Source: Octopus vulgaris (taxonomy: Eukaryota). Taken from it: a stretch of DNA of 64,000 nucleotides. This document shows positions 1 through 54,985 of the stretch, piece by piece (the first letter of the stretch is position 1; each line of letters begins with the position of its first letter). Below the pieces are notes generated by a model. That model was not told where the DNA came from. It searched no databases and was given only the letters and a program-made list of their open reading frames with translations. The DNA lies in contig OX597832.1 of assembly GCA_951406725.2 (NCBI GenBank), positions 67,828,001 through 67,892,000 of the forward strand, in the 5' to 3' direction. The position numbers were made by a program, and so were the translations under genes.

Positions 1-837
1 TTCAGATGAGGGTTAAAGAGAATATTGTATTCAAATCTATAAAATTTTGCGGTAAATTTAACAAAAATGAAATAGAAGAAATGCAAGTACAATAAGAAAT
101 TCGCCATGCGTCATTCTTTGATTGAGATATCATTAAGAAAAAAAATTATCATTATTTCTTTTTAAGAAATGTAACCAATTTAATGTTGAAATATTTTTGC
201 TTTAATTTTACTTAATTTGATGTTTAATTTTTTATCACATCCTTTAATATTTGATTTTAAAAGTGACAGTCGATGATGGCTAAAAGTGTAGAAAAGTGCG
301 CAGTATTTAACTGTAATTAAATTTCCTCTCTCTTCTGTGTTCGAATCTTGCTAGGGGTCAGCTTTCGCTATCGTTCCTTCACTGATTATAAAAATAAATA
401 GTGATAATTTGGGAGAGACAGCAAATTCAATCCACTTCCGCCCTTTTTTCTTAATAAATGACCTCCTGCTTTTTACTGCGTTGGGAAAATGTCATCAAAA
501 TGGGAGAGCATGCGAGAGGAAGTCAATACGCCCGAGGACGTGTCAGCAATTCTTTCCATCGTTTGAAGAACAATAACATAAGTTCCAGTCTTGTATTGAC
601 ATCGATCTTAATAGACTATAATTTCCCAGCACATTGAAGTTGACTTCAGACTTTGTTTGAATTAAGGGATATAAAATTCAACTTTTTAGGTCAATGAGCC
701 TCAAATCCGGTTGAACACCGAAGAAACTATATTCGAGAAGTTAATTACATTAGTTTTGCTTCTAAGTTCAGCAGTCACCATTGTCTACATTACGGTTTAT
801 AGCTTCGAGAGTGACATAATAATTCAAATGAAATATT

Positions 838-3179: not shown

Positions 3180-3362
3180 AGAAGTTCGTGTGTGATAAGA
3201 GATGACAGGATCAACTGGTGCGACCACGTGAGCGTATCATATAGTATAACGCTCAGGAATTGAAAAAGACTTCTACGTTTCGGGCCTACGCTCTTCTAAA
3301 GAAAGGGACACAGAAAAAAACAAGGAGAGAAAAAATGTGTAGTGGCTACCGATTTATCCATT
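3180..3362 (-). mobile_element. Short non-autonomous repeat with a hammerhead-shaped motif (family shared with 39887-40070 and 13925-14040)
   Basis: Minus strand reads gccactacacattttttctctccttg...ctttc TTTAGAA gagc gtag gccc GAAA cg TA gaag...ttcctgagcgttatacta, homologous to the 39887 copy. Confidence 0.6.
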
Positions 3363-18469: not shown

Positions 18470-18471
<2 letters not shown>

Positions 18472-20007
18472 TAAGAAAGTTTGTTTGGTAAAGCACGTGG
18501 GTGAATATATAAGAAAATAGTAAAGTGTGAAAAAACGACAGAAGGCTTAAATGTTAAAAAATATATATATTTGTGTCAAAATGTCTGGAGAATATTGGAA
18601 AAATTTTTTTTCCCTTTCCTTAAAATGACATAATTTTAAAATTTTTAAAGAAATTACCGGTTTCGCGTGTAGCTTTTCAAATTTCTTGTGACGTTATGTT
18701 TATATTGCATGGAATTATCGTTGTTTTTATTTCCAGGAGATTTCTAAATAAGGGGAGGTAGTGAGTGATTTTTTCCGGTGTAGGGGAGATAATCGCTTAA
18801 AAATTTTTTTTCCCTTTTCCTTGTTAATTTCTCTGTGTCAGTATGTTCGGATGGTTGAGTCTGGGTTTGTACTTTTCAATGAAGAATGTTTCCTTGTTCA
18901 GTCTCATTTGTGTTGATGATCCGAAAGCACATTGGTAAAATGGGAAGATTAAAAATTGTGGCAGTAGTTGCTTTGCGCATTTCTCAATGTGCTCACTAAA
19001 AGGTATCATTCTATATTCTGGGAATGCAATCTGTTGTCGATGCAGTGTGCATCTGCGCCTGAGTGATAGTCCCGTGGAACCCACGTAGTCTTGGTGGCAG
19101 CCCGAGCATTTAATAACATAAATTATGTTTTCAGAGGCACAAGTAAAGTTAGATTTGATCTTAAATTTCTGTCCCTCTTTAAAGAAGAATTCTGATCCTT
19201 CCAATAGGTTAGGACATGTTGCACAGTTCGATCTACCACATTTTTTTACTTTTGCATCCGTAATTTTAGAAGACAATTTTGCCTTTGTGAGAATCTTTTT
19301 AAGTGATTTAGGCTGTTTGTAGCTTTTAATGATTTGGTGTATGTTTAGAATTTCCTTTAATTTTGGGTTTTTATGAAGTATTGGTAAATTCTGGGTGATG
19401 ATGGTGAAGGCTTCTTTGTTTCTGGGGTTGTATGTAGATATGTAAGGTAGTATTTTCGGGGAAGGTGTGTTGTTGTGTTGAACTTTTCTTAAAGTTTCTA
19501 TGTTGATTTCTGTTGCACGTCTGATCCCATCCTCTATGAGTTGAGCTGGGTAATGTCTGTCAATTAGGGTGTTTTTGAGTTCTTGCAGTCTAAAGTTCCT
19601 GGTATTTTGTTCTGACACTATTGTGCATTTCCTTCTTGCAAGGTTGAAGGGGATGTTTGTTTTAGTGTGTCTTGGGTGGCATGAATTAAAAGAAGGTATT
19701 GTTTGGCGTCTGTGGCTTTGTAAAAAATGTCTGTTTCTATTTTAAGGTTAATTTTTTTAATTAGTATATCCAAGAACGGGAGCTCCTTTTGGTTGTATTC
19801 CATTGTGAACTGTATATTTGGGTTTATGCTGTTCAATAGGTTTTTAAATTTTAGGAGTTTATCTATGTTTTCATTCCAGAGAATGAAACAATAGTCTAGG
19901 AATCGTTTCCAATTCTCTTTATGTATTGAGAGAGGGAGTTTCCAAAGATTGATAGAGATTCCTGGTAAATGATTATTTCCATGTATCCCATTGTTAAGTT
20001 CGCAAGT
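18470..20007 (-). mobile_element. 5'-truncated Penelope-like element (Neptune-like): RT C-half, Cys-rich linker, GIY-YIG and 3' UTR; frameshifted
   Basis: LANLTMGYME, WKRFLDYCF, IQFTME...LPFLDILI, TDIFYKATD, CGRSNCATC, FTCASENIIYVIKCSGCHQDYVGST..RRRC..H, E.FFI..Y.P.LN. Confidence 0.9.
18648..18687 (-). ncRNA. Minimal hammerhead with U3:A8 core, in PLE 3' UTR
   Basis: aagaaat TTGAAAA gc tacac gc GAAA ccgg TA atttctt. Confidence 0.75.
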
Positions 20008-20009
20008 CA

Positions 20010-20902
20010 TTCACCATCATCACCCAGAATTTACCAATACTTCATAAAAACCCAAAATTAAAGGAAATTCTAAACATACACCAAATCATTAAAAGCTACA
20101 AACAGCCTAAATCACTTAAAAAGATTCTCACAAAGGCAAAATTGTCTTCTAAAATTACGGATGCAAAAGTAAAAAAATGTGGTAGATCGAACTGTGCAAC
20201 ATGTCCTAACCTATTGGAAGGATCAGAAGTATTGGTAAATTCAGAAATTTAAGATCAAATCTAACTTTACTTGTGCCTCTGAAAACATAATTTATGTTAT
20301 TAAATGCTCGGGCTGCCACCAAGACCACGTGGGTTCCACGGGACTATCACTCAGGCGCAGATGCACACTGCATCGACAACAGATTGCATTCCCAGAATAT
20401 AGAATGATACCTTTTAGTGAGCACATTGAGAAATGCGCAAAGCAACTACTGCCACAATTTTTAATCTTCCCATTTTACCAATGTGCTTTCGGATCATCAA
20501 CACAAATGAGACTGAACAAGGAAACATTCTTCATTGAAAAGTACAAACCCAGACTCAACCATCCGAACATACTGACACAGAGAAATTAACAAGGAAAAGG
20601 GGAAAAAAATTTTTTTTCAGCGATTATCTCCCCTACACCGGAAAAAATCACTCACTACCTCCCCTTATTTAGAAATCTCCTGGAAATAAAAACAACGATA
20701 ATTCCATGCAATATAAACATAACGTCACAAGAAATTTGAAAAGCTACACGCGAAACCGGTAATTTCTTTAAAAATTTTAAAATTATGTCATTTTAAGGAA
20801 AGAGAAAAAAAATTTTTCCAATATTCTCCAGACATTTTGACACAAATATATATATTTTTTAACATTTAAGCCTTCTGTCGTTTTTTCACACTTTACTATT
20901 TT

Positions 20903-37625: not shown

Positions 37626-38438
37626 ATCGTGACGTATTTTTGCCATTTCAATATGGCTAACCCCTAAGGGTCGATGCTACTGTAGTTTTTAGCCCCAGGA
37701 GGACACACTCCTCCAGCTGGCCATAGACACACTATCTGTGTCCTGTCAGTATTTGCAAAGGGAAGTCATCCTTCCCGTCTTCAACTTATGATACACACGG
37801 ACTCGAGTTTCGAGGTATTGACCTCTCGTCAGCGTGTGACAATCATAGTTGTCGCCGAGAATTAGATTTCCTTCACGAATACTTTTACTTTTTCCAGCGT
37901 CCACTGTCGCTGATATTGAAAAAGTGAAATCAAACAATGATAAATATCAAAGTAAGTTATATACAGTAGCGGTAACACATCGTGACGTATTTTTGCCATT
38001 TCAATATGGCAAAAATACGTCACGATGTGTTACCGCTACTGTATATAACTCACTTTGATATTTATCATTGTTTGATTTCACTTTTTCAATATCAGCGACG
38101 GTGGACGCTGGAAAAAGTATAAGTATTTGTGAAGGAAATCTAATTCTCGGCGACAACTATGATTGTCACACGCTGACGAGAGGTCAATACCTCGAAACTC
38201 GAGTCCGTGTGTATCATAAGTTGAAGACGGGAAGGATGACTTCCACTTGCAAATACTGACAGGACACAGATAGTGTGTCTATGGCTAGCTGGAGGAGTGT
38301 GTCCTCCTGGGGCTAAAAACTACAGTAGCATCCACCCTTAGGGGAAATGCAAAAATAGCACATGTGTGAGAAAATGGCTATAAAAAATACGTCACGATGT
38401 GTTACCGCTACTGTATATAACTCACTTTGATATTTATC

Positions 38439-38441
<3 letters not shown>
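37626..38441. mobile_element. Fold-back palindrome of an approximately 353-nt HHR element, both halves terminally redundant, in (TA)n
   Basis: Arms 37661-37999 / 38006-38344 with a 6-nt loop. 37626-37657 repeats at 37979-38010, and 38011-38069 repeats at 38383-38441. Confidence 0.95.
38167..38211 (+). ncRNA. Canonical type I hammerhead ribozyme (mirror copy 37794-37838 on minus)
   Basis: cacacg CTGACGA gagg tcaata cctc GAAA ctcgag TC cgtgtg. All stems perfect; GUC site, cleavage predicted after 38205. Confidence 0.92.
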
Positions 38442-38483
<42 letters not shown>

Positions 38484-38489
<6 letters not shown>

Positions 38490-39082
38490 GAAATATTAAA
38501 ATTACTAAGTCTTTCTAAAAGAGAACACAGCAGCGTTCCTGGAAATTAATAGTTATCGCCATACTAATATGGCATTCTTATAAAAATAAGAATAAAGCTG
38601 TCCGTTTATTAGCTCCATGAGGCCATCACCTTAAGTTAGCTATTTGATACACAAACTGTATCCATATAACCTTCGAACAAGGGAGGTCAGTCGCTCCACA
38701 CTACTTGATCGACAGCTACAGACGCATTTCGGGGTATTGCCCCTTTTCAATGTAGCGTAGTCAGACCAGTAGGTGTCGCTTCCGACAATCCCAGTTCGAA
38801 GGTTTTATTTACCTAGTTTTAGTGGAATACATCCACTTGTTTTCAATAATAGAAATATTAAAATTACCAAGTCTCTCTAAAAGAGAACACGGCAGCGTTC
38901 CTGGAAATTAATAGTTATCGCCATACTAATATGGCATTCTTATAAAAATAAGAATAAAGCTGTCCGTTTATTAGCTCCATGAGGCCATCGCCTTAAGTTA
39001 GCTATTTGATACACAAACTGTATCCATATAACCTTCGAACAAGGGAGGTCAGTCGCTCCACACTACTTGATCGACAGCTACA
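38484..39082 (-). mobile_element. Partial tandem (about 1.65 units, 362-bp period) HHR element
   Basis: 38486-38720 repeats at 38848-39082 with few substitutions. The 3' end abuts (TA)n. Confidence 0.92.
38715..38756 (-). ncRNA. Type I hammerhead with U3:A8 core
   Basis: gctaca TTGAAAA gggg caata cccc GAAA tgcg TC tgtagc. Confidence 0.85.
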
Positions 39083-39800
39083 TATTTTGATGTGTGGTTG
39101 TAAGTTTCAAGCATCCGCTTGTAGGAAGTTAGTAAGCTTTGAGCAGTCCGTGGGAAGTCGTAAGAAACAATTTTCGGGAACAATAAGTTTATTGGCGTTT
39201 TCTCATATCGATGTTCGCTAAGCTGAAAACTTTTTCTGTCTTTCTTTATCATAGTTCACATTAGTTTTGCCAAGAATGCGAATAAATATGCAAATTGAGG
39301 GAATAGAGTAGGTAAGAACCAGGCTACATATTTCTTAGCTAGCTGACCCTCAGAAGTAATAACTGGAGAGGAAAAAGATATTGGTAGTTCCAGATACATT
39401 TAAAGTAATTGTTTCACATACATTTAAAGCCAGGTTAACCTCAGTGGATTCTAAGAAAGCAAATTACTCTAATTTTGTTTATAGTAGAAGCAAACTTATT
39501 TGGGTCAGAATGAATTCAGATCATTAACCGTTTATTCTCAATACAATATAAAGTAAATGGACAGATATAAAGAAATCGAAAACAGGGTATGTCATTGTCG
39601 TAAGGCAAAGAGATATACCCATAATAAAAGTGTAACTATAAAATATTAATTAGAATTCATTTACCAATCGGAAGGTATACATCTATACTTGTTTATTCTA
39701 AAGGATTCTAAACGTTTTCAATCATTCGATATGGTTTTTAATAGCATGCTCGTAAGTTATCAGCTTACCTTTAAAATAATTACTCCTTTGTGGTATGTAC

Positions 39801-39865
<65 letters not shown>

Positions 39866-39886
39866 TACACACACATACCGGCCTTC

Positions 39887-40070
39887 GCCATGATAGATCG
39901 CTCGCCACTACAAATTCTTTATTTTCTCTCCTTGTTTCTGTGTTGCTTTCTCTGAAAGAGTGTTGGCTCGAAACGTTAAAGAGTTTTCAATTCCCGAGCG
40001 TTATACTAATACATCTCATTGTTGTCTATACCACCTGTCTTCGTATTTTGTTTTTTTGTGAATTCTCCCT
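39887..40070 (+). mobile_element. Short repeat with hammerhead-shaped motif at 39946-39981 (family of 3180-3362)
   Basis: ctttc TCTGAAA gagt gttg gctc GAAA cg TT aaag; flanked by (TA)n. Confidence 0.6.
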
Positions 40071-40097: not shown

Positions 40098-42090
40098 AAC
40101 TTAGATATGTTTCAACCAAAGATTGGTCCAGGCCATGTCTAAAATTAATAGCACCACCTGACATGATTATCTAAATCCTGTTTAAGTCAAGTTTTGTTTA
40201 TGGTCCATTAAAGTAGTGAGATTTTGTTGGGTGAGTCGTATCCGTTTATGGGTGGCTTATCTGGTATTCGTCGAAGGAATCTATCCAGACTCCGTTTAAA
40301 GTTGATGGGATCCTTTTCCTCTTTGATCTCTTTCGGGACAATGTTAAATAGGGAAGGGCCTGTTGAGGAAAATAAATTATGTTGCAGTGTACCTATATGC
40401 TGTGATCCTGAATTGGGCAGAGGACGTATGGTCCGTGGTCCCAGTCTTGGATGAACCTTGAAGCTAATGTTCTGGTCGTTTGGGCAAAGTTGGCAGTATA
40501 TTTTCCACATCGTACAAATGATGTACCGCTCACGGTGGCGCTGGAGAGAGTAGAGTTTCAAGGCTTTCAGGCGGTCCCAATAATCGAGAGCAGCCATGCC
40601 TTCAATTCGTTTAGTGAGATCCCTCTGGGGTGATTCAATCCTCGAAATGCTTTGTCTTTTATGGGGAGACCACAGTGAGCAGCAGTATTCGAGGTGTGGC
40701 CGTACAAAGGAGGAGAAAATTGGTATGATGACACCTTGTTCTCTGGACCGCAAGGTTCGTAATATCCAGAAACTCATCCTACAAGCTATATCGACCTTAT
40801 TGTTGATGTGGGCACTCCAACTGAGATTGTCATCAACAATTACGCCCAGGTCTCTGATATTGTTAGAGGCTGTGAGCGGTTCCCCTGAAGGAAGAGTGTA
40901 TGGCTGTTTTAGTGTGGACTTTCTTCCAAAATGCATCAGCTCAAATTTTCCCTCGTTCAGTTGCATTTTGTTTCTGTCTACCCATTGACTCACAGAATAT
41001 AGATCACACTGGAGTTGAGTTTGGTCTGCTTCTTCATTGATGATTTGCTGGAGCTTAGTGTAATCAGCAAATATTTTCACTTTGCAGTAATGTACGACAC
41101 TGGAAAGCTCGTTTATATAAATTATAAAGAGGAGCGGGCCCAAGACAGTCCCCTGGGGGACACCGCTGGTGACTTTTGCTGAGCTTGAGTGGACTCCATC
41201 GACTACAACATGTGTTCTATTCGCCAGGAAATACTTAATCCAGTGTAGAAGTTTTCCACGGATTCCAACATTTGCCAATTTTGAGAGTAGGATAATATGG
41301 TCAACCCTGTCGAATGCTTTACTGAAGTCAAGATATATGACATCAGAGTTCGAACCTGTTCCCAAGGCTTTAAGTATATCTTCAATGTGGTGTAAGAGCT
41401 GTGTTAGACAGACCCTGCGACAGCGAAAACCATGCTCATTTGCATTTAGGAGTTTGTGGGTTTGCAGGAAGTCAGCTATCCTTGATCTTAACACTCTTTC
41501 AAACACTTTAATGATGTGGGAGGTGAGTGAGATTGGGCGATAGTTGACTGCGAGGGATCTGTTTCCCTGTTTGAAAACCGGGATGACAGACTGGGACAGA
41601 AGCTGTTTCGGTATATAACTTGAGTCTAACGAATATCTCCAGAGGTTGGTCAGAGGGATTGCAAGTTGGTGTCTACATTCCTTCAGGAGACTAGCGGGGA
41701 ATCTATCAGGGCCTACAGCAGAATAGTATTTAACCTCATTTATTGCTGCTATGATGTCAGAGGCAGTGAAGGTTATGTGTGAGATTTTATGTTCGGCATC
41801 AACTTCGTTCGCTTCTCTTACGTCAATATCAGTGGGAACACTAAAGACAGAGCAGTATTGTTTCTGCAGTATTTCTGCCATTTCTTTAGCATCGTGTTGG
41901 GGAATGCCGTCATCATCAATCAATGGCCCAACGGGTGAGACAGTGGTTCTATGCTTATTTGTATAAGAATAGAACACTTTTGGGTTCTGTTTGAGGCTTT
42001 TTATTACCCACTGTTCCTCCACAGCTCTTTGATTTTCAATGTAGGTTTTCATGTCGGTCTGCAGATGAAGTTTTTCCAACTCTAGCCTTT
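40098..42090 (-). mobile_element. 5'-truncated CR1-like LINE (RT portion, open frame 40208 to about 42090)
   Basis: GPD, NYRPISLTS, HGFR, LDFSKAFDRV, GVPQGTVLGPLLF, FADYTK, RDLGV, VRPHLEYC..WSP. No endonuclease domain. 3' end at (TA)n. Confidence 0.92.
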
Positions 42091-43689
42091 TCATTGTTGT
42101 TGAATGTGGATGTTGTATGCGGGAATATTTTAATTGGTTGATTTTTTTTATTGAGTCTATATAATATAGAATCCAATACAAAGAACCCCGTTTCTTTTAT
42201 AGGGATGGAAATATCCAATTTTTCACTGGTTTGCCGTTTTTAATACACAATATAGCAGAAAAAAACTTTTGCATAACACCAATTGGCATATGTTCAATGT
42301 ACACAATGAATAGAAAATGAAGATTTACGATTGTCATACTTCAATTTATTAACATAAAATTATATTACGATATTATATAATATAAATACAAATATTATAA
42401 TCCTACAAATTGTTTCGATTCAGACCCAATAATGAATTTGTGAAAAATTCATATTTATGGGTAAGAATCTCATCGTTGAAATATTTGTCAGAAATTAGAT
42501 GTATGACAATATGCAGATTGTTAGAAAATATAACAATAGTAAATCTCCACTTTTATTCCGCATCGCAAAGTTTCGATATATTTCTTGAGAAAAACCTTCG
42601 ACTTATTTTATTTCATTTTATTGTATTTTATAAACCCAATTTGGTCATTTAATTTATAGATAATTCAATATAGGGTGTTATATTTTGCATGTCTTTTCCC
42701 TAAATTTTTTATTATTATGCACTCAGCAATTATAAAAAAATAATGTTGGTTGTTATATACGTCAGATCCTAGACATGTTTTTATGTGAATATTTGTATTG
42801 GCATGCATAAGTATTCGTAAGCACGCGTAAGTGTGTAACTGAGCGTGTATGTTTGTACTTATTCACATACATACATGGATGTATAAGTATGCATGTATTC
42901 TCTTGGATTTGTGTGGATGTGTTTTTACATACTAGTCTCTATATATTTATATATATGTTTTTATATGTGTATTTAATGCTAATATACACTTTTATTCACA
43001 CATGTATACGTAATTATATTTTATAAAGTTCGTTACGCATAGTCAGACTTTTTTCTTTCTTCCTCCTTTTCGTTATTTTTCTCTCCCTATTCGTTACTTG
43101 TATAGAGTCCTGTAACTTTACGCTCCTCTCCCCTTCTCTTACTCACGTCTTTAGCTTTCTGTTGCTTATAAGATCGTTACCTTTTCTTTTCTTGCCCCTC
43201 TCTGCGTTTTACTTCTAGTTTATATGTATACATCAAGTGATTTTTGCATGCGAACAAGATTGCGTATACATGTGTGTACATGTATTTGTGTGTATATTTT
43301 CGTTTTCCCTTTATATGCCTGTATATGTAAGTGGTTTGTGTACATCTGTCTGTGTATTTTGATGTACGTATGTATATTGATGGTTTAGTATGAGCATATA
43401 CTATTGTGAAATATTGTAATATATTTTTATTTTATTTTTTATGTATTAATTGTATTAATCAAATAATATTTTCTATATAACTAATGACAATAGCTATTTG
43501 AATCAACTCTTCAATTTAAGGTTTTTCCTCGATTTTTATAATTTATATTGAACTCATTTATTTTATTTATTTTGTTTATCCCTTGCCTAAGACCGTTATT
43601 TGAAAGGACCAATGAAGCAGATCCATATTTAAAGGTGTATCCTTTAGCTAGTTTTCATCAAATTGTCATCTCGGTTCTATTTTAGCAAA

Positions 43690-49757: not shown

Positions 49758-52700
49758 GAGATTACACCGGGGACGTTAAACATGTGAGAGCGATAAAACA
49801 GTGCTCCGAAATTTATCCACAAACATCGGAAACAAAGACAACGCCTGGAGCTAAAAAATAACTGACAAAGGATTGGACAATATCCGAGTAAGTAATACTC
49901 ATTGAAATTTATTATTCTTTTCAAAACGAAATGAAGTATTTTAACTCGATATCATCTCCACCTGTAACACAACACATGTAAACATGCTTGATACATTACG
50001 ATCCATCAACACCAGATCATCTCCGGCCCCAAACACCATGTACAAAAAAACTACGAATAAATTAAATAATACCGGTATTATTCAACCCAAGAATAACAAT
50101 CGGGAAGTACGTACTGTAAATTTACAACATAAAATGTACGAAAAACTACACGTGCGAAATAATGTGACAACAGAAATGAACGGACCGGTACCCTACGAAA
50201 ATGACGACCGTCAAAATAATGGGTCGGACGTTGTTCCTCATGTCCCGCAAATAAAACCCAAAAGACATAAATGGACACGTGAGGAATACATTTCTATCCT
50301 ACACGCTTACTTTACAGCAGTGCTCTACTCAAAGAATGAAAATACAACAACACATACATACAAAATATGGAAGAAAAATAACATAAATAAAGACCTGGAT
50401 ACAACAATGAACCCTAATAAACTAGCAAATATACGGAGATATATTCTCAACGCAAAAAAGATATCAGAAATAGAAATAGAACATTTAAAAGAAAAAATAC
50501 ATCAGGAAAATGTAGATAGAAGCCACACAACAATGCCAAATAATATAAACACTGAAACAGTAAAACACGAAGACAAACGTAACATTTCTAACAAAAACGA
50601 TGAAAACAAAAAACAACAAACCCAGACCGTAAGGATACATAATAATACACGACAAACAGCAAGCCAAAAACACGACAAACAAATATACGGAAAAGATAGA
50701 AAGCGACACAAATCTAAAACCTGGAAACAACGAAGGGGAGCCTAATGATTATGAAACTATAAAAAGTAGAATATTCAAAGAACTGAAAACCACAGAGCGC
50801 AAAATGGACCATCGACCAAAAATCAAAATAGACAAAACAACAACACCAATTATAAACAACATATAACTAGCCGTCACGGAATTAATAGCCACTGAAACAA
50901 AAAGCGATATCACTGAGCTAAATTACTTAGTATACGCAACAGCCACTGCAGCCACAAAAGAAGCTGGATACTCACTCAAACACATTCAAACAGGAGTACG
51001 ACCACCCAAACAAACCCTGTGGATAAATAACATCCCAAACAAAATACAAAAATGAGAAAAGATCTGTCGATTCTTAATGAAATCAGTAGACAATCAAAAG
51101 AAAAATACTCCGCAAATACAACACCACAGAAAAAGATTTACCCGAGATAAAAGAAAAGCTGAAGCAAGATATACTTGCCAAAGCACAAAGGATCCGCCGG
51201 TACGAGAAACGCCAAAGTTTCTTTGAACAAAATTAAAAGTTCAACTCCAACACCAAAAAGTTCTACCAATAACTTGGCAAAAATAAAATAGAAATCACTG
51301 CAGCACCAACGGCAGAAGAAGTGGAAGAATTCTGGAGAGAAATATGGTCGGCGAACGAACAACCAAAAAAACGGAGTATCAAAACAACAAACTCAGCATC
51401 TGAGCAACTTTGGACCCCCATAACAACTGAAGAGGTCACCCAGGCACTGCAAAGACTAAGCAACTGGAAGGCACCTGGGCATGACAAGATCCCCAACTTC
51501 TGGTTGAAATATCTAACAGGAATGCATAAAAAGCTGGCTGAAAATTTTAACAACATACTTTCAGAGCCAGAGACAACGCCTGAATGGCTCACGAAGGGGA
51601 AAACCATCTTAATTCCCAAATCAAATGAGACAGCAAAACCAGAAAAGTACAGACCTATAACCTGTCTCCCTACAACGTACAAAGCATTTACTGCAGTAAT
51701 ATCGCAAAGACTGAACAAGCACCTGGACGAAAACAACCTGTTTCCAGAAGAGCAGAAAGGATGCCGCAAAGGCTCATATGGCTGTAAAGATCAAGTAATG
51801 AACAATAAAGCCATAACTAAAGACAGCCACAGAAAGAAGAAAGGCCTCAGTATGGCCTGGATCGACTACAAAAAGGCGTTTGATAGCATCCCCCACACAT
51901 GGATTCTCTAAACACTAGCCATGAACAAAGTTGCACCAACAATTACAAAGTACATAGGACATTCTATGAATAATGGCAAACAGTGCTACAGCTCCAAACA
52001 AAAGAGGGACTCGTGAAAACCAAAGCCATCCCCATTAGAAGAGAAATATTCCAGGGAGATACGCTCTCTCCGCTCCTTTTAAGCTTGGCACTGTCACCTC
52101 TATCGGATATGCTAAACAGAACTGGATGCGGATATAAATGTTACGGCAAAAAGATCAGCCACCTTTTATATATGGATGACCTAAAACTATACGCTACAAA
52201 TGACAACAGCTGGAAACACTACTAAATACAGTTCATGGATTTACCAAAGAAATAGATATGAAATTTGGAATAGAGAAATGCGCCAAAGTAACTCTGAAAA
52301 GAGGAAAACTAGTTAAGAGTAGCAACATCACACTAGATAAAACCAATGAAATAAAATAATTAAACCAAAGCCAAACTTACAAATACTTAGGAATCCATGA
52401 ACTAGATAAGACACAACACACACAAATGAAAGAGAAAATAAAAAAAGAATATTATAGACGAGTTAGATCAATACTAAAAACAGAGCTCAATGCTAAAAAC
52501 AAGATAATAGGTATCAACACTTTAGCCGTCCCAGTTATAAGTTACAGCTACAATATCCTTAACTGGACACTAAATGAACTGACCAAAATAGATAGGAAAA
52601 TAAGAAAAATAATGACAGGATCTAGGTTACATCACCCAAAATCTGACATAGAAAGGCTATATATACAATGTATAGATGGTGGTAGAGGCCTTATACAGCT

Positions 52701-53851
52701 GGAAAACTACTATAAAATAACCACAATAGGACTGCAAAAATATCTACTTCAGAAGGAAAGAAAACTGATACAAATAGCGGCAAAATACGAGCAAAACAAG
52801 GAACTGTTCTCAGTATTTAAGGAAGCTGACAAATACAAACAAGAAAGCATACCACCTAGCATATATGCAGAAGAAGAAGAAGAAGAAGAAGAAGAAGAAG
52901 AAGAAGAAGAAGAAGAAGAAGAAGAAAAGCTATAAAACATATGAAATCCAAACTAAAAATAGAAGAGCAACGAACCATGATAAAACGATGGCAAGAAAAG
53001 CCCCTTCATGGCAAATACTGGACTAAACTAAATGCAAAAGAAATAGACAAAGAAAAATCCCAACAATGGATGAGAAGCTCAGGACTGAAAGCAGAGACAG
53101 AAGGATTTTTATTTGCAGCGCAAGACCAAAGCCTCAACACCAGAAATTACCAAAAACATGTAATGAAAAGAAATATAACAAGTAACAGCAGAATATGTGG
53201 AGATGGACAAGAAACAATAAATCATATTATCTCTGGCTGCCCAGTCCTGGCTAAGAAGGAATATATTCACAGACACGACAGAGTTGGGACCTATATACAT
53301 TGGAAACTATGCCAACATTATGGAATAACAACAGAAAAAAGATGGTATAGGCACACACCAGAAACGGTCACAGAAAACGAGAAAGCAACCATACTCTGGG
53401 ATATGCCGATACACACAGATAGAGAAATTAAGGCTAACAGACCAGATATAGTTGTCAGAGATCATGAAGAAAAAAAATGTTTTCTAATTGTTGTATCATT
53501 ACTAGCGGATGACAACGTATCTCTAAAAGAAATGGAGAAACTTTCAAAATACCAAGACCTGGAAATAGAGATAACCAGAATGTGGAATCTAAAAACAGAA
53601 CCAATTCCCATCATAATAGGTGCATTAGGCATGATAAAAAAAATATTCAGACAAATATATAACAAAAACACCAGGACTTACAAACACATATAACATACAG
53701 AAAATTGCACTACTAGGCACTGCACACATCCTACGCAGAACACTTTCCATACAATAACCATCAGAGCATCACAACAAATCACAGCACATACCCAAGGCAC
53801 ACAGAGCTGCGCTCGGTAGTGAAGTGAAAGCACGATATAAAAAATATACTA

Positions 53852-53853
<2 letters not shown>
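49758..53853 (+). mobile_element. Near full-length Dong/R4-clade non-LTR retrotransposon (RT plus restriction-like endonuclease), disrupted by stops and frameshifts, in (TAA)n
   Basis: KAPGHDKIPNFWLK, YRPITCL, EEQKG, DYKKAFDS, FQGDTLSPLL, HLLYMDDLKLY, RICG..QETINHIISGC, RHD, RPDIVV, K..KY..L. (TAA)n on both sides. Confidence 0.93.
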
Positions 53854-53927
<74 letters not shown>

Positions 53928-54030
53928 GAAGAAGAAGAAGAAGAAGAAGAAGAAGAAGAAGAAGAAGAAGAAGAAGAAGAAGAAGAAGAAGAAGAAGAAG
54001 AAGAAGAAGAAGAAGAAGAAGAAGAGGAAG

Positions 54031-54985
54031 AAATACAAACAAGAAATCATACCACCTAATAAACACGAAGAAGAAGATGATGAAGAAACAACAAAAGCTA
54101 TAAAACAAATGAAATCCAAACTAAAAATAGAACAACAACGAACCATGATAAAACGATGGCAAGAAAAGCCCCTTCATGGTAAATACTGCACTAAACTAAA
54201 CGCAAAAGAAATAGACAAAGAAAAATCCCAGCAATGTTTGAGAAGCTCAGGACTCAAAGCAGAAACAGAGGGATTTTTAATTGCAGCACATGACCAAAGC
54301 CTCCCCACCAGAAATTACCAAAAACATGTAATGAAAAGAAATATTATAAGTAACTGCAGAATATGTGGAGATGGACAAGAAACAATAAATCATATTATCT
54401 CTGGCTGCCCAGTCCTGGCTAAGAAGGAATATATTCACAGACATGACAGAGTTGGAACCTACATACATTGGAAACTATGCCAACATTATGGAATAACAAC
54501 AGAAAAAAGATGGTATAGGCACACACCAGAAAAGGTCACAGAAAACGAGAAAGCAACCATACTGTGGGATATGCCGATACACACAGATAGAGAAATTAAG
54601 GCCAACAGAGCAGATATAGTTGTCAGAGATCATGAAGAAAAAAAATGCTTTCTAATAGATGTATCAATATCGGCAGATGACAACATGTCTCTAAAAGAAA
54701 TGGAGAAACTCTCAAAATACAAAGACCTGGAAATAGAGATAACTAGAATGTGGAATCTGAAAACAGAAACAATTCCTATCATAGTAGGTGCATTAGGCAT
54801 GATAAAAAAATATTCAGACAAATACATAACAAAAACACCAGGACTTACAAACACATATAACATACAGAAAATTGCACTTTCCATACAATAACCATCAGAG
54901 CATCACAACAAATCACGGCACATACCCAAGGCACACAGAGCTGCGCTCGGTAGTGAAGTGAAAGCACGATATAAAAAATATACTA

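Follow-up and report, generated by a model that had tools for sequence, protein, structure and literature searches.

A Probable Penelope-Mobilized Retrozyme Insertion in Octopus vulgaris, with its 5' End at a Predicted Hammerhead Cleavage Site

The insert, its ribozyme motif, and its neighbors

The insert described here lies on the minus strand of a window of 64,000 nucleotides of the Octopus vulgaris genome (contig OX597832.1), the window being the whole stretch of DNA that was analyzed, and is formed by one complete unit of 362 nt and part of a second. The unit is numbered from the base that follows GUC (position 1), with position p lying at 39083-p in the full copy and at 38721-p in the partial copy. 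The principal features are as follows:

39082-38484, minus strand: whole insert, a complete 362-nt unit and the first 237 nt of the next one (copy-to-copy comparison)
38721..39082, minus strand: full 362-nt unit, position 1 at 39082 and position 362 (C17) at 38721
38484..38720, minus strand: partial second unit, positions 1-237, which stops at the long fixed 3' end
39082..39083, minus strand: 5' junction at the predicted cut, with one base (T) in common with the target TA run
38484..38491, minus strand: long 3' end (positions 230-237, TCTATTAT), continuing into (AT)n
38546..38553, minus strand: short fixed 3' end at positions 168-175 (ACTATTA), which this copy carries internally
Positions 175-237 of the unit, minus strand: optional Penelope-type tail
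39039..39044, minus strand: main 5' breakpoint hotspot of the family, positions 39-44, read through in this copy
38715..38756, minus strand: predicted type I hammerhead with a U3:A8 core, cut between 38721 and 38720 (motif scan and fold)
38668..38805, minus strand: predicted long imperfect rod that extends stem I, positions ~278-332 paired with 1-53
38441..38483, strand not applicable: (TA)n target tract, in common with a neighboring element of another family
39088..39365, strand not applicable: 5' flank, the start of an old repeat with ~72% identity to its other copies

The stretches 38484-38720 and 38846-39082 differ by 4 mismatches in 237 nt, and the identity between them stops at 38720/39082. 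A first-pass annotation of this DNA had placed the break in homology at 39082, the equivalent of 38720, which the comparison bears out with one base of ambiguity: T1 may instead be the final base of the target TA run (flank ..AAAATA followed by TGTAGC), which puts the junction at position 1 or 2. The 362-nt unit that had been proposed also holds, while the additional portion, estimated originally at about 236 nt, is a partial unit of 237 nt by alignment. The full unit is 95-99% identical to the family copies; no ORF of at least 120 aa was found overlapping the insert, and an RT/GIY-YIG ORF is absent from it.

The 3' end of the insert abuts the (TA)n tract at 38441-38483, and the long 3' end at 38484..38491 is likely to be the site at which the reverse transcription of this copy was primed. 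The old repeat of the 5' flank follows a TA-rich tract in several of its other copies, and little or no target DNA thus seems to have been lost. The insertion sits at the edge of the TA tract, T1 possibly being a target base. Microsatellites dominate the results of repeat finding across the whole window, and the host genome, of 2.8 Gb, is rich in these sequences.

The TA tract is shared with the element at 37627-38441, a head-to-head twin of another non-coding family. Each of its arms bears a type I hammerhead of canonical form (CUGACGA; helix III palindromic), one on the plus strand at 38168 and the other on the minus strand at 37837. The two ends of the twin lie within (TA)n, and only one of them has a tail, of ~42 nt. 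The 5' breaks of this family are broadly spread. The old repeat at 39088-39365 (~70% identity, hundreds of candidates) has an end that faces TA-rich tracts in several copies, so that the TA tract found here was apparently the target of three different elements. A further repeat is present beside TA tracts in two diverged copies (78%), at 39860-40070 and 3242-3358, the former with a hammerhead-like motif (CTGAAAGA...GAAAC) recognized by eye, which the strict motif scan does not list. Long ORFs at 40208-42196 (-) and 49945-54891 (+) resemble, also by eye, fragments of LINE-type reverse transcriptases.

The motif scan recovers the minus-strand hammerhead that the first-pass annotation had described at 38756-38715, with a predicted cut after GUC. 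The motif comprises stem I (GCUACA/UGUAGC), the core UUGAAAA (U3, A8), stem II (GGGG-CAAUA-CCCC), GAAA, and UGCG-UC, and has the features of a type I core, that is, the 3-8 pair, G5, A6, A9, G12, A13, A14, A15.1-U16.1, and H17, with N7 being free. In the window, no match to an Rfam hammerhead was found at the gathering threshold. The core positions are at least 98% constant over ~300 unit copies, with N7 varying between A and C, a constancy that is weak evidence by itself, given that the family is young.

The helix III palindrome is ACGCGU in the family and AUGCGU in this copy. As CGCG is the family state (305 of 308 unit copies) and UGCG, with T at 357, is found in only 3 of 166 insertions, the T at 357 of this copy is likely to be the product of later CpG decay. 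In the computed folds, the closure of helix III within the monomer is unfavorable (-6.2 vs. -11.8 kcal/mol open), and the duplex of the palindrome has -8.9 kcal/mol, or -7.1 kcal/mol for this copy with a family partner; on this modeling, the palindrome would pair with a second copy of the unit. Positions 322 and 9 are compensated, with A322-U9 and G322-C9 alternating between two subfamilies and a matched Watson-Crick pair in 302 of 306 cells, which represents one evolutionary event only.

The family and its probable mobilization

A 26-mer of the unit has 2358 exact matches genome-wide, the first 100 of which fall in ~45 loci, indicating a family of at least about 1,000 insertions. From 380 loci, a non-random sample, 254 distinct insertions were mapped, comprising 169 head-to-head twins, 71 single arms, and 14 complex insertions, with arrays that reach 5-6 units. 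The 3' ends of the arms pile up at ~174 and ~237; at either position they follow CTAT or CTATTAT and continue into (AT)n. The long end is found exactly at 237 in 135 of 409 arm ends, and nearly all of the 50 arm ends drawn at random join (AT)n-like sequence after CTAT or CTATTAT. The two ends are combined in an almost invariable manner in the twins: 145 of the 169 have one end at ~174 and one at ~237, two carry a pair of short ends, a pair of long ends is never seen, and in 22 an end is degraded, which leaves one short and one long 3' end in 145 of the 147 classifiable twins.

The non-coding tandem unit, within the range of 150-450 nt, the GC content below 50%, the single type I hammerhead per unit, and the lack of an LTR arrangement are all traits of retrozymes, and many loci of the family (L002, for example) carry at least two consecutive complete ribozymes, the "active" criterion of Li et al., while this copy has one. 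A pair of fixed 3' ends, a tail that is optional and confined to one end, an inverted and 5'-truncated second arm, and an AT-rich or microsatellite target are the traits of mobilization by Penelope, a point overlooked by the first-pass annotation. It is very probable that the one-armed insertion belongs to a young family that is a new member of the animal retrozymes mobilized by Penelope. None of the runs listed with the stretch is on record as RNA; it is present in the assembled contigs of 14 runs guessed to be RNA, and four runs cover it, contigs being a form of data that cannot show ends, strand, or circles.

A candidate partner is represented within the window itself, at 18470-20900, by a twin insertion of a young, autonomous Penelope-like family with a GIY-YIG-like region and a CX4CXXC linker. 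At other loci, such as L419, this family retains an intact ORF of 811 aa for a reverse transcriptase and a GIY-YIG-like domain, in which RVT_1 is recovered with E=8e-7, just under the Pfam cut-off, together with a weak GIY-YIG match; the CX4CXXC linker is as in Neptune and Nematis. A U3:A8 hammerhead motif lies ~146 nt after the stop codon, and a tail of ~37 nt is found at one end. The family is young and abundant, with at least 149 genomic matches that are 100% identical over 158 aa. In the comparison of the unit with this one Penelope-like family, at 36 loci, the best match was 15 of 17 AT-rich nucleotides (E 0.2-8.9), which is not significant.

The distribution of the 5' ends

The a priori chance that a single insertion breaks at one named base of the 362 is ~0.3%, and the genome contains more than 1,000 insertions, so that only the distribution of breaks across the whole family can judge the junction of this copy. 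The first-pass annotation had predicted that the breakpoints of the genomic copies would peak at the GUC site.

The census of the subfamily covered all 100 matches of a 23-mer at positions 5-27. Of these 100 passes, 92 cross the cut site intact and 8 stop at positions 1-4, with 2 further stops at 354-362, 2 at 336-353, 13 at 301-335, and 11 at 261-300. When this copy and one duplicate are removed, 6 of 98 end at cut+1..4, vs. 1.6 expected (P=0.006).

A second sample, which has two loci in common with the census, was taken from five contigs with complete listings (C1-C5), using matches of the core at 58-82 in which the base at 353 is not G. Rows that looked truncated were fetched and some plain indel rows were skipped, and 165 of the 195 cores examined break within 354..58. 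Here, 20 of 165 breaks fall at cut+1..4, vs. 9.9 expected (P=0.002 under uniformity; P=0.006 against 354-362), while the exact position 1, with 4 of 165, has no significant enrichment (P=0.23). The largest peak is the hotspot at 39-44 (49 of 165, P=3e-14), and the remaining zones hold 19 breaks (354-362), 28 (9-16), and 18 (17-38); those at 354-362 lie just upstream of the cut, beyond the reach of run-off, and with them the zone from 354 to 16 is elevated as a whole. Position 3, a TA able to pair with the target, is the commonest of the four (9 of 20). When the flank-joined ends of these data are taken alone, 5 of 40 are at cut+1..4, vs. 2.4 expected, a weak excess. Genome-wide, the 58-82 core has 1972 matches, 1369 of them with G at 353, which indicates that ~70% of passes cross the whole zone.

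An unselected sample of 65 arms, from 40 of the ~45 loci on C1 (~52 passes), had no arm end at 1-4 and 9 at 39-44, on a background of 2.9 per 1000 nt. A zero at 1-4 has P=0.07 if the true rate is 5%, and 0.013 if it is 8%. In the neighboring canonical-core family, none of the breaks was at +1, and two were at +1..4 in a sample of 24 and again in one of 17, both samples being small and partly overlapping; a +40 hotspot that this family had appeared to share vanished in a wider window.

The breaks are thus not random, and the 5' ends at cut+1..4 are in excess by a factor of ~2 to 5, a real feature, but a minor and blurred one: the predicted peak exists in this form, while the exact base is not enriched and the main peak is at +39..44. 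The share of the ends at 1-4 that lies above background is about one half in the five-contig sample and about three quarters in the subfamily census, and the excess is likely to record occasional cleavage in living cells. The twin arms that end at 1-4 join many different partner positions, as free ends would. In L284, L341, L269, and L098, twin joints connect an arm that stops at cut+2..4 to one that stops at +40..42, and have hardly any or no microhomology, as would be expected if the two hotspots were genuine cDNA ends.

The hotspot at 39-44 (39039-39044 and 38677-38682) has a sharp upstream edge and is rich in pyrimidines. Its sequence, which we take to resemble a pyrimidine-rich initiator, makes it a candidate site of transcription start or pausing. 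An extra G, the trace of a cap, was not evident before the ends at +39..44 (2 of 13 flank junctions, by eye), and the idea of a transcription start at +40 is therefore not supported by that test. The motif scan found no second hammerhead core near +40, and a model of the cost of unzipping the RNA did not predict the breakpoints (rho -0.12, P=0.33).

The form of the template bears on how the ends arose. The first-pass annotation had proposed that reverse transcription read through an intact ribozyme, on a multimeric or circular RNA, and ran off a self-cleaved 5' end. Reading through intact ribozymes on a template of more than one unit is observed, and is the rule in the family, while the run-off stands at about even odds. 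A run-off at +1 after a full pass requires a linear multimer cut at one site, so that, if the end was cleaved, the template was multi-unit but would have been a linear multimer cut once, not a monomer circle. One full pass before the stop, as in this copy, is found in 5 of 24 such arms.

Within an insertion, the units diverge by 0.69% in register and 0.70% within an arm, vs. 2.0% between insertions, and in 68 twins the in-register divergence (0.0072) is nearly equal to that off register (0.0080, P=0.049). Four private variants are common to all copies of their insertion and, together with the near-identity of the units, would fit a circle or a very young donor. Five others are present in some copies only, three of them in register on both arms; all five may be accommodated by the unequal units of a linear template, with gene conversion between the arms as an alternative source.

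The best explanation, to which a probability of about 0.5 is given, is that a protein-free retrozyme of 362 nt was copied by a Penelope enzyme, and that its cDNA ended at an RNA end cut by the ribozyme. The Penelope-like enzyme would copy multi-unit RNA into a TA microsatellite as a one-armed insertion, with a GIY-YIG nick in (TA)n and the cDNA primed on the UAU of CUAUUAU at 237 or 174; a two-ended cut would normally employ one start site each. In this copy, synthesis would have started at 237, passed through one uncut ribozyme, and stopped at the end cut by the upstream ribozyme. The ribozyme may have little activity as a monomer and cut in the form of a double hammerhead, paired by way of its palindrome; it is proposed that the upstream cut releases the partner, so that the downstream site is left uncut, which is the template needed by this copy. 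Some 5-8% of passes would meet a cut end, with 0-3 nt lost in joining, and most cDNAs would stop elsewhere, chiefly at +39..44. The lone junction of this copy is no proof of ribozyme activity, and the family statistic is a modest hint.

A serious, if somewhat less probable, rival retains the Penelope route and leaves the template uncut at this point, the end being due to pausing or drop-off as the enzyme exits stem I at the three-way junction, or to a TA microhomology joint. The match to the cut site would then reflect structure rather than catalysis, and an uncut multimer and a ligated circle would both be possible templates. Breaks are indeed raised on both sides of the cut (19 at 354-362, 20 at 1-4, and 28 at 9-16, of 165), and cluster at palindromes and TA, with most twin joints having 1-4 nt in common, yet the upstream edge is sharp in the subfamily, with 8 stops in positions 1-4 vs. 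4 in the 27 nt upstream, and the computed unzipping cost has no predictive value. Uncleaved RNA is the dominant template of the Anolis element (PMC11167929), and the register-independent divergence of ~0.7% and the four insertion-wide variants are as expected of a circle; a single circle, however, cannot explain the three private variants that are in register on both arms and absent from the other units.

Plain chance is an improbable explanation, by which the window was singled out because one of more than 1,000 scattered 5' truncations chanced to stop at position 1. The exact-base count, which is not significant, and the zero at 1-4 in the unselected sample speak for it, and a background of ~3 stops per 1000 nt would by itself place several of the ~2,000 arm ends at position 1, but the excess recurs in two samples at a site named beforehand (P=0.006 and 0.002). 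Local tandem duplication, or a satellite, would account for a head-to-tail repeat, but is refuted by the family anatomy, in which copies are dispersed over many contigs, the 3' ends are fixed, twin arms are inverted, and the targets are TA, and is scarcely credible.

An ending of the cDNA at a ribozyme-cut RNA end may also be set within a broader reading, which is speculative and, taken as a whole, unlikely. In this joint reading, the 5' ends of the genomic copies would map the true ends of the RNA: +1 would mark in vivo cuts by U3:A8 double hammerheads that spare the next site, +40 the start from an internal promoter, and the templates would be linear multimers, with a dimeric Penelope enzyme using a single unit to prime the two DNA ends, each from its own CUAUUAU. 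If true, it would be the first in vivo sign of U3:A8 hammerhead activity in the literature searched, and would argue against the spread of retrozymes by circles alone.

Significance and comparison with known systems

The accessible text of PMC4209133, PMC8557442, and PMC11167929 presents as open whether Penelope and retrozyme hammerheads cut in vivo, and which form the template takes (cut, uncut, or circular). A young family of more than 1,000 insertions allows cut and uncut templates to be counted from the DNA alone. The cut ends, if such they are, account for only ~5-8% of passes, reading through is what usually happens, and 40 nt downstream there is a stop that is stronger and unexplained; the family also yields a sharp rule for the pairing of its two start sites.

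As far as the available text of PMC7229834 and 10.64898/2026.07.22.740005 goes, the animal non-LTR retrozymes are alike in their non-coding tandem unit of 150-450 nt (350-390 in the mussel), GC content below 50%, and one type I hammerhead per unit, and they co-occur with Penelope-like elements, their proposed mobilizer (PMC7229834; Li, Clavereau and Pollet 2026, 10.64898/2026.07.22.740005). The axolotl HHR_Amex1, in the portion of its description available, has a palindromic helix III, as in this family. The octopus family differs from the animal retrozymes, as these accessible descriptions present them, in its U3:A8 core, its short dispersed arms rather than long arrays, and the visibility of its twin arms and fixed 3' ends. 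The same partial sources demonstrate circles and cleavage for the coral, mussel, and axolotl retrozymes, whereas cleavage in the octopus family is predicted from DNA alone.

The accessible text of PMC4209133 reports U3-A8 covariation, the core covariation of the octopus motif, in the minimal hammerheads of the Cercyon Penelope-like elements of Schistosoma, for which dimeric action and low activity are predicted; this precedent for the core was overlooked by the first-pass annotation. Those motifs, as presented there, combine a long helix II with a helix III that is minimal or absent, and are mostly single, while the octopus motif has a helix II of 4 bp, a 4-nt palindromic insert, a long extension of stem I, and tandem units. 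In the literature searched, U3-A8 hammerheads were found only in PMC4209133. No breakpoint census at the hammerhead site of Penelope-type elements was found in the openly accessible main texts of that literature. The dimer cleavage of Penelope-like hammerheads is reportedly the subject of Lunse et al. 2017, which may include U3:A8 tests. The U3:A8 hammerheads, the animal retrozymes, and the Penelope tails are already known, and what is new is the modest breakpoint statistic.

The Penelope-like elements have an optional tail at one end and the anatomy of pLTRs and inverted copies (PMC8557442, in its accessible part), and in the Poseidon element PAc of Anolis the optional tail is explained by two internal start sites (PMC11167929). 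The octopus family resembles PAc and Penelope, to the extent that PMC11167929 and PMC8557442 are accessible, in its two starts flanking an optional tail, AT-rich target, extension of both strands, inverted 5'-truncated second arm, one-end tail, and read-through of the ribozyme. It departs from the Penelope elements, as the available descriptions have them, in lacking an ORF in the unit and in its tail of ~63 nt, not 30-40. The two octopus start sites have CUAUUAU in common and a microhomology of 3-4 nt to (TA)n, whereas the PAc starts are reported to be non-homologous to the target (PMC11167929), and the pairing of one short with one long end is near absolute (145/147), unlike PAc (PMC11167929). 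In PAc, mutants of the ribozyme retain normal insertion, and none of the RNA-seq reads starts or stops at the cut (PMC11167929); where PAc has no RNA ends at the cut, the octopus family has a small excess of DNA ends (PMC11167929). The 5' junctions of R2, in turn, record the cleavage of an HDV-like ribozyme, blurred by chance microhomology (PMC3774820, accessible text). In R2, according to the same text, the cut fixes the element's 5' end, while in the octopus family it accounts for a small minority of the ends.
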